A stretch of 64,000 nt of DNA. Source: Escherichia coli. GTDB taxonomy: Bacteria > Pseudomonadota > Gammaproteobacteria > Enterobacterales > Enterobacteriaceae. The notes beneath the pieces are model-generated. The model was not told the origin of the DNA, did no database searches, and saw only the letters and a program-made list of their open reading frames with translations. A program made the translations under genes and the position numbers. The stretch lies in NCBI RefSeq assembly GCF_024700885.2, contig NZ_CP117016.1. One strand, written 5' to 3'. This document shows positions 46,889 through 47,543 of the stretch, piece after piece (position 1 is the stretch's first letter; the number at the start of each line of letters is the position of its first letter).

Positions 46889-47296
46889 TTATCTTTGCGT
46901 CTCTTGTTGCAACAAAATCCGCCGTAAATCCCGCCATTCGGCTTCGTCCATGCTGTCGGCTGCCAGCCATAAATGTTGCCGTTTACCGCTGTCAGAACGT
47001 AAACGCAGCATCATGCCGCTCTTAATCATCCACGGCGCTTTGACGATGCTCCACTCCTGCCCTTGCCAGCGCAAACGCCCGTCCATCAACAGGCGAATTT
47101 CCCCCTGGCGAGCATTAATGCGCCGCTGGCTGCGAACGCAATCAAACACCACCAGCGAAAGTAACACCATCCATAACGGGGTGTAACTGAGCGGCCAGGG
47201 CATGAGTAAAATAACAGCGGCAACCAGCCCATGAATCAGCAAGGAAAGCCACTGTGCGCGCCAAGAGACGCGCAAATCAGATTGCCACAGGACCAC
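46889..47296 (-). CDS. ygfX: inner-membrane protein, proposed toxin CptA
   Basis: 135-aa ORF with two hydrophobic segments; overlaps the sdhE stop by 20 nt. Confidence 0.85.
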
Positions 47297-47543
47297 GTTC
47301 CCGGTTCCGTGTCTGGATGAGTCGGACCATCATTTCCAGTTCTGCATCGGCCGGTTTACCGTGATTCATCAGCCAGTTAAACAGGTCCGGATCGTCACAT
47401 TCCAGCAGACGAATAAAGATGCGTTTTTCGTCATCGCTTAAGCTGTCGTACTCATGTTCGAAAAACGGCATGATTGAAATATCGAGTTCGCGCATACCAC
47501 GGCGGCATGCCCAATGAATGCGGGCTTTGTTGTTAATGTCCAT
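47277..47543 (-). CDS. sdhE: FAD assembly factor for succinate dehydrogenase
   Basis: 88-aa ORF with conserved RGMRELD motif. Confidence 0.9.

Follow-up and report, generated by a model that had tools for sequence, protein, structure and literature searches.

Type IV toxin-antitoxin (TA) systems are those in which toxin and antitoxin share a target without binding each other. CbtA/CbeA (YeeV/YeeU), the defining type IV system of E. coli, is present in several copies, which lie in cryptic prophages. Another pair, YgfX and YgfY, has been proposed as a TA system under the names CptA and CptB. In this proposal overproduced YgfX is toxic to E. coli and inhibits the polymerisation of FtsZ and MreB, and YgfY counteracts it (Masuda 2012, cited in PMC8621075). 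The "toxins" of both systems are therefore reported to target FtsZ and MreB (PMC8621075, PMC3985639), while the pairs have no sequence relationship. Homologues from Acinetobacter have also been expressed in E. coli, where CptA inhibited growth and CptB relieved the inhibition, at high inducer levels (PMC8132199).

The supposed antitoxin YgfY is also SdhE, a member of the SdhE/Sdh5/SDHAF2 group of complex II flavinylation factors (PF03937; structures 1X6I, 6C12, and 6B58). Its role in flavinylation is solid in the literature. In the crystal structure of FrdA with SdhE, residue G16 of SdhE hydrogen-bonds the FAD-ligand histidine of FrdA (PMC5773532). Deletion of ygfY in E. coli leaves the cells viable and abolishes both SDH activity and growth on succinate (PMC5293155). 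SdhE is widespread in organisms without YgfX, including alpha-, beta-, and gamma-proteobacteria and eukaryotes (PMC5042078).

The sdhEygfX operon has been studied in Serratia sp. ATCC 39006, where the two genes are co-transcribed, the membrane protein YgfX interacts directly with SdhE, and there is no TA phenotype (PMC5042078, PMC3985639). The Fineran group detected no such phenotype in Serratia, yet protein-protein interaction was seen (PMC3985639). Co-transcription in the Enterobacteriaceae and the interaction of YgfX with SdhE are also stated in PMC5042078, which cites McNeil 2013. Loss of either gene in Serratia lowers prodigiosin transcription, and deletion of ygfX has no discernible effect on swimming (PMC5042078). 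The link to prodigiosin and the regulation by RsmA, RsmC, and FlhDC are Serratia findings. In Shewanella the two genes are 37 bp apart, deletion of ygfX leaves growth unaffected, and deletion of ygfY gives the same defect as the double deletion. Shewanella YgfX shows no toxicity of the TA kind, and it does not bind FtsZ, MreB, or, by two-hybrid assay, YgfY (PMC8621075). The TA claim for CptA/CptB is thus contested: it has been reported for E. coli and Acinetobacter but not reproduced in Serratia or Shewanella. Overexpression of ygfX has already been tried several times with conflicting outcomes, so such a test alone does not settle the TA question. Here the pair is described as it occurs in a stretch of 64,000 nucleotides of E. 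coli DNA (the window) and compared with these systems.

Results

The locus is the already known bicistronic operon sdhE-ygfX on the E. coli chromosome. It consists of two open reading frames:

47277 to 47543, minus strand: sdhE (ygfY, cptB) coding sequence, ATG start, 88 aa, FAD assembly factor (ORF, PF03937, NF008130, PDB identity, RefSeq)
46889 to 47296, minus strand: ygfX (cptA) coding sequence, GTG start, 135 aa, small inner-membrane protein (ORF, PF07254, RefSeq)

RefSeq annotates the same two coding sequences as FAD assembly factor SdhE (WP_000354046.1) and protein YgfX (WP_000244781.1); their neighbors are fldB and xerD at one end of the pair, and ygfZ and trhA at the opposite end. The original prediction had named the genes and given their lengths and strand, and these are right according to the ORFs, Pfam, NCBIfam, and RefSeq. 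The 20-nt overlap that it described is confirmed by the ORF listing and RefSeq, the shared positions being 47277-47296. It also described the pair as having been put forward both as a TA-like module (CptA/CptB) and as a flavinylation factor, which agrees with the literature (PMC8621075, PMC3985639, PMC5042078, PMC5773532). The 1101 nt around the pair match the chromosome of E. coli SMS-3-5 (NC_010498.1) at 100%. E. coli K-12 MG1655 has the identical layout, with sdhE as b2897 and ygfX as b2896 (YgfY/YgfX, CptB/CptA), the same neighbors, and the same 20-nt overlap. The pair differs from that of K-12 only by strain-level polymorphism between SMS-3-5 and MG1655, with no differences in the 267 nt of sdhE and nine in the 408 nt of ygfX, which produce a single amino acid change (G103S) in YgfX.

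SdhE of the window resembles the known flavinylation factors in domain, motif, and sequence, and no difference from them was found. It matches the Pfam family Sdh5 (PF03937) over its full length with an E value of 5e-26 and 90.8 bits (cutoff 27), and it scores 198.4 bits (cutoff 120) against the NCBIfam SdhE equivalog NF008130. All 88 residues are identical to those of the crystallized E. coli protein (PDB 1X6I) and of the SdhE chain in the SdhA-SdhE complex (6C12). The RGxxE motif is present as RGMRE at residues 15-19:

47487 to 47501, minus strand: RGxxE codons of SdhE, R15-G16-M17-R18-E19 (motif search in the protein)

The operon is part of the core genome and its surroundings are conserved. 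Of 5426 complete E. coli genomes, 5425 have the region as a single copy. The remaining one has no match to it, one assembly has its copy on a record that is classed as a plasmid and not as a chromosome, and the 1101-nt query has one extra partial match, so that one genome has it in two places. In an independent survey the CptA_toxin domain was found in at least 80% of isolates of every E. coli sequence type studied (PMC10790755). The order ygfZ / sdhE-ygfX / fldB / xerD-dsbC-recJ is kept in two other loci (L007 and L008) in which YgfX is only 27-32% identical. The single-copy core status and conserved synteny point to a vertically inherited housekeeping operon and not a typical TA cassette. 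This sets sdhE-ygfX apart from CbtA/CbeA, as does the nature of its "antitoxin", a conserved assembly factor for respiration. The accessory, patchy, or mobile distribution that is typical of TA systems, although not strictly defining, is not seen. As a separate observation, the neighborhood at 46328-48766 groups genes related to redox cofactors, namely fldB for a flavodoxin, sdhE for FAD attachment, and ygfZ for a folate-dependent Fe-S cluster protein; this order too is kept in L007 and L008.

When the single YgfX sequence was searched against 1.8 billion representatives, it matched 135 clusters at 50% identity, and the named matches are all from Enterobacterales (Citrobacter, Salmonella, Enterobacter, Kosakonia, Leclercia, Duffyella, and Plesiomonas).

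The two genes differ in how common their alleles are. For the part of the locus belonging to sdhE (47297-47543), 87% of complete E. coli genomes reach an identity of 99% or more; for the ygfX part (46889-47276) only 4.7% do. Diversity was compared over five neighboring genes in 13 E. coli genomes drawn down both similarity rankings. Pairwise diversity was 1.33% in sdhE, 1.94% in ygfX, 1.05% in fldB, 1.52% in xerD, and 3.28% in ygfZ. Hyper-conservation of sdhE at synonymous sites was considered and rejected, since its value falls within the 1.05-3.28% of its neighbors. The contrast between sdhE and ygfX is one of allele frequencies only: the sdhE allele of SMS-3-5 is the common one and its ygfX allele is less frequent, possibly with a recombination breakpoint between the two genes. 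Within the same sample, ygfX has 0.95 nonsynonymous versus 6.95 synonymous differences per pair, indicating that the YgfX protein is under purifying selection within E. coli.

The overlap between sdhE and ygfX is conserved more than expected by chance. The junction has the following features:

47277 to 47296, minus strand: 20-nt overlap, containing SdhE codons R83-I88 with the TGA stop and YgfX codons 1-7 (ORFs, comparison of nine loci)
47294 to 47296, minus strand: GTG start of ygfX, inside the CGT-GGT (Arg83-Gly84) codon pair of SdhE (sequence)
47298 to 47308, minus strand: weak Shine-Dalgarno-like purine motifs, GGAA at 47305-47308 and GGGAA at 47298-47302, in the Arg-Asn-Arg-Glu codons of SdhE

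The ygfX reading frame is +1 relative to sdhE. The window was compared with eight further loci (L002-L009) fetched by exact-protein look-up, in which YgfX is 22-59% identical. In all nine, sdhE is immediately upstream of ygfX on the same strand. The overlap is exactly 20 nt in six loci (the window and L003-L007), 26 nt in L008, and 19 nt with an ATG start in L009, while in L002 there is a 1-nt gap after a strong AAGGAAG Shine-Dalgarno sequence. The start codon is GTG in eight of the nine. It comes from an Arg-Gly pair of SdhE (CGT GGx) in five loci (the window, L003, L004, L006, and L007), and other CGT Gxx pairs give the GTG in L005 (Arg-Asp) and L008 (Arg-Glu). A GGAA motif 9-12 nt upstream of the ygfX start recurs in L004-L007, within the Arg-Asn codons of SdhE. 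The gap and strong Shine-Dalgarno sequence of L002 show that the overlap is not obligatory, and the 37-bp spacing in Shewanella makes it a feature of Enterobacterales and not of the whole family. Among the 13 E. coli genomes there is no segregating site inside the 20 nt, which is not significant.

Synthesis of YgfX is most likely coupled to translation of sdhE. Three features together suggest this: the start is GTG, the ribosome-binding motif is weak, and the overlap is conserved. The sequence upstream of ygfX pairs only weakly with the anti-Shine-Dalgarno sequence, at about -4.3 kcal/mol, and the GGAA and GGGAA motifs, judged by their sequence, may have a role in initiation. Ribosomes that end at the sdhE TGA could re-initiate a few codons upstream on the ygfX GTG, or the start could be unmasked, or both, and the output of YgfX would then be tied to that of SdhE. 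Masking of the ygfX start by RNA structure is unsupported, as a fold of 121 nt around the junction has a z score of -1.24 and 23 of 200 shuffled sequences were as good. A strong GC hairpin, UGCGCGUC-UCUU-GGCGCGCA, is located at 47255-47274 on the minus strand, beginning 3 nt past the sdhE stop in ygfX codons 8-14. The other genera sampled do not conserve this sequence, and the hairpin is therefore probably a by-product of the codons for LRVSWRA.

Open reading frames in which SdhE is joined to YgfX were found in metagenome and SRA assemblies. They are 166-217 aa long and have both Pfam domains. However, a natural fusion was rejected because the junctions all differ and there are only one or two sequences per cluster (P0003, P0004, P0006, P0007, P0009, P0012, P0013, and P0021). 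These ORFs look like the products of independent 1-nt indels, either sporadic mutations or assembly errors. Both frames are open over about 55 nt (47277-47330), the region to which the fusion junctions correspond.

The sequences flanking the operon contain several putative regulatory features:

47544 to 47785, no strand assigned: divergent sdhE/ygfZ intergenic region, with presumed promoters and the sdhE 5' UTR (sequence)
47547 to 47552: AGGAAG Shine-Dalgarno-like motif upstream of sdhE (SD scan)
47579 to 47584, minus strand: TACAAT, a -10-like hexamer (sequence reading)
46856 to 46885, no strand assigned: imperfect inverted repeat with 12-nt arms and a 6-nt loop (repeat search)

Scanning for consensus promoters gave no sigma-70-type site upstream of sdhE on the minus strand, and the promoter position is thus putative. 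The intergenic region also contains a perfect 12-nt palindrome, TCGCGATCGCGA, at 47628-47639, which is 85-96 nt upstream of the sdhE ATG. It is the same in SMS-3-5 and K-12, while six other intergenic positions differ, and it could be a regulator binding site or could have arisen by chance. At the other end, the inverted repeat occupies the 39 nt that separate ygfX from fldB, whose stop codons converge there. The repeat lacks a T-run, and a terminator scan called no terminator after ygfX, this repeat included. It may be the end of both the ygfX and the fldB transcripts. A search with Rfam (E values up to 0.1) found no RNA element between 44000 and 50000.

YgfX belongs to a defined Pfam family, and its GTG start is supported. 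It matches Pfam PF07254 (Cpta_toxin) with an E value of 1e-49 and 168.5 bits (cutoff 27.3), with residues 2-131 aligned to positions 1-132 of the 133-position profile, and all 41 aligned relatives match this family as well. The N-terminal sequence MVLWxxxLxxS is retained across 41 members of the family with identities as low as 22%. It is also kept in L002, where sdhE ends ahead of the GTG, so that its N-terminal codons are under no constraint from an overlap. Residues 2-8 form a confident beta-strand in the AlphaFold2 model. These three results support the GTG as the start. An in-frame TTG at codon 8, one base past the sdhE stop, could be an alternative start, but the conservation of residues 1-7 argues against it.

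YgfX looks like a two-helix membrane hairpin with a predicted cytoplasmic domain that resembles a PH domain. The AlphaFold2 model was built with the 41-sequence alignment and has a mean pLDDT of 91.9. From the N-terminus it has a beta-strand (residues 2-8), two helices (12-31 and 36-62), six further beta-strands within 65-112, and a C-terminal helix (118-134). The best 19-residue Kyte-Doolittle window, at residues 14-32, has a hydropathy of 2.04. Helix 1 and the start of helix 2 are hydrophobic in composition, and residues 63-135 are charged. The predicted segments are encoded as follows:

47204 to 47263, minus strand: YgfX predicted transmembrane helix 1, residues 12-31 (AF2 pLDDT about 90, hydropathy)
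47111 to 47191, minus strand: YgfX helix 2, residues 36-62, its hydrophobic N-terminal part predicted to span the membrane and its basic C-terminal end predicted to be cytoplasmic (AF2, composition)
46892 to 47110, minus strand: YgfX predicted soluble domain, residues 63-135, six beta-strands and a C-terminal helix, PH-like

This arrangement is similar to that of membrane-anchored bacterial PH-like proteins, which have two transmembrane helices followed by a PH-like domain. The likeness is in fold only and has moderate support. YgfX has no match to any Pfam bPH family profile, the model has no significant Foldseek match, and no solved structure is related to YgfX by sequence. Two distant relatives of YgfX have weak matches (best E value 0.009) to Pfam DUF2244, another small integral-membrane family. 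These matches may point to a larger superfamily that combines a hairpin of two transmembrane helices with a soluble domain.

Discussion

The best explanation overall is probably that the operon encodes the assembly factor SdhE and a co-translated membrane partner, YgfX. By the mechanism described in the literature, SdhE is a small five-helix FAD assembly factor whose RGxxE face binds the free flavoprotein subunits SdhA and FrdA, and it promotes the covalent attachment of FAD to them before their incorporation into complex II. YgfX is a small inner-membrane protein made from the same mRNA, with its N-terminal strand and residues 63-135 forming a predicted cytoplasmic PH-like domain. Native YgfX is most likely a membrane partner or modulator of SdhE and not a dedicated toxin, and inhibition of FtsZ and MreB would be an effect of overexpression. 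The core status, synteny, overlap geometry, and PH-like domain lean toward YgfX being an accessory partner of the assembly factor. Counting against a partner role are the lack of effect of ygfX deletion on swimming in Serratia (PMC5042078) and on growth in Shewanella, the negative two-hybrid result there (PMC8621075), and the two reports of growth inhibition by CptA and its relief by CptB. Viewed at the level of sequence, the locus fits an old, translationally coupled housekeeping operon and not a mobile TA cassette.

A more specific form of this explanation is rather doubtful at present. YgfX might be a membrane-anchored PH-like adaptor that holds or releases SdhE at the inner membrane, timing the delivery of flavinylated SdhA or FrdA to the membrane subunits of complex II. 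The overlap, with the GTG placed in Arg-Gly codons, would fix the ratio of SdhE to YgfX, and the "toxin" phenotype would result when overexpression breaks this ratio. If this adaptor role is true, it would reconcile the TA reports with the assembly-factor reports.

It is unlikely that the pair is a true type IV TA system, in which blocking of FtsZ and MreB polymerisation by membrane-bound YgfX, counteracted by SdhE, is the physiological function. Several points are consistent with such a system. Pfam describes PF07254 as a membrane-bound toxin component, and YgfX matches it strongly (E 1e-49). The layout is that of typical TA operons, in which a small gene comes first and overlaps the "toxin" gene that follows it, here by 20 nt on the same strand, although this is not specific to TA systems. 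Toxicity and rescue have been reported for E. coli (Masuda 2012, cited in PMC8621075) and for the Acinetobacter homologues in E. coli (PMC8132199). On the other hand, no TA phenotype was found by the Fineran group, and the direct interaction of SdhE with YgfX contradicts the type IV definition (PMC3985639). The Shewanella ygfY and double deletions are alike, and YgfX there is neither toxic in the TA sense nor able to bind FtsZ or MreB (PMC8621075). In E. coli the ygfY deletion is viable and its phenotype is specific to SDH (PMC5293155). Structures of complexes with SdhA and FrdA have been solved for the supposed antitoxin, which is a housekeeping factor, and the locus is single-copy, core, and syntenic. 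In addition, neither SdhE nor YgfX has a match among the PADLOC defence models.

The least probable explanation is that YgfX has a function unrelated to SdhE, such as a membrane or envelope role, and that the shared operon and overlap result only from historical genome compaction: there is no SDH-linked phenotype of ygfX deletion (PMC5042078, PMC8621075), SdhE is widespread without YgfX (PMC5042078) while YgfX forms only 135 clusters with named matches confined to Enterobacterales, and the YgfX-YgfY interaction was not seen in Shewanella (PMC8621075), but against this sdhE is directly upstream of ygfX in nine of nine loci at 22-59% YgfX identity with the overlap geometry kept down to the GTG start (Arg-Gly in five), SdhE and YgfX interact directly in Serratia (PMC5042078, PMC3985639), and deletion of either gene lowers prodigiosin transcription there (PMC5042078).

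The probable role of YgfX as a partner of SdhE has consequences for how the family is annotated. Matches to PF07254 should be treated with caution and should not be counted as toxins in TA surveys. What is added here to the knowledge of the operon is only mildly useful: the geometry of the 20-nt overlap is kept across Enterobacterales, and the soluble domain of YgfX has a PH-like model.
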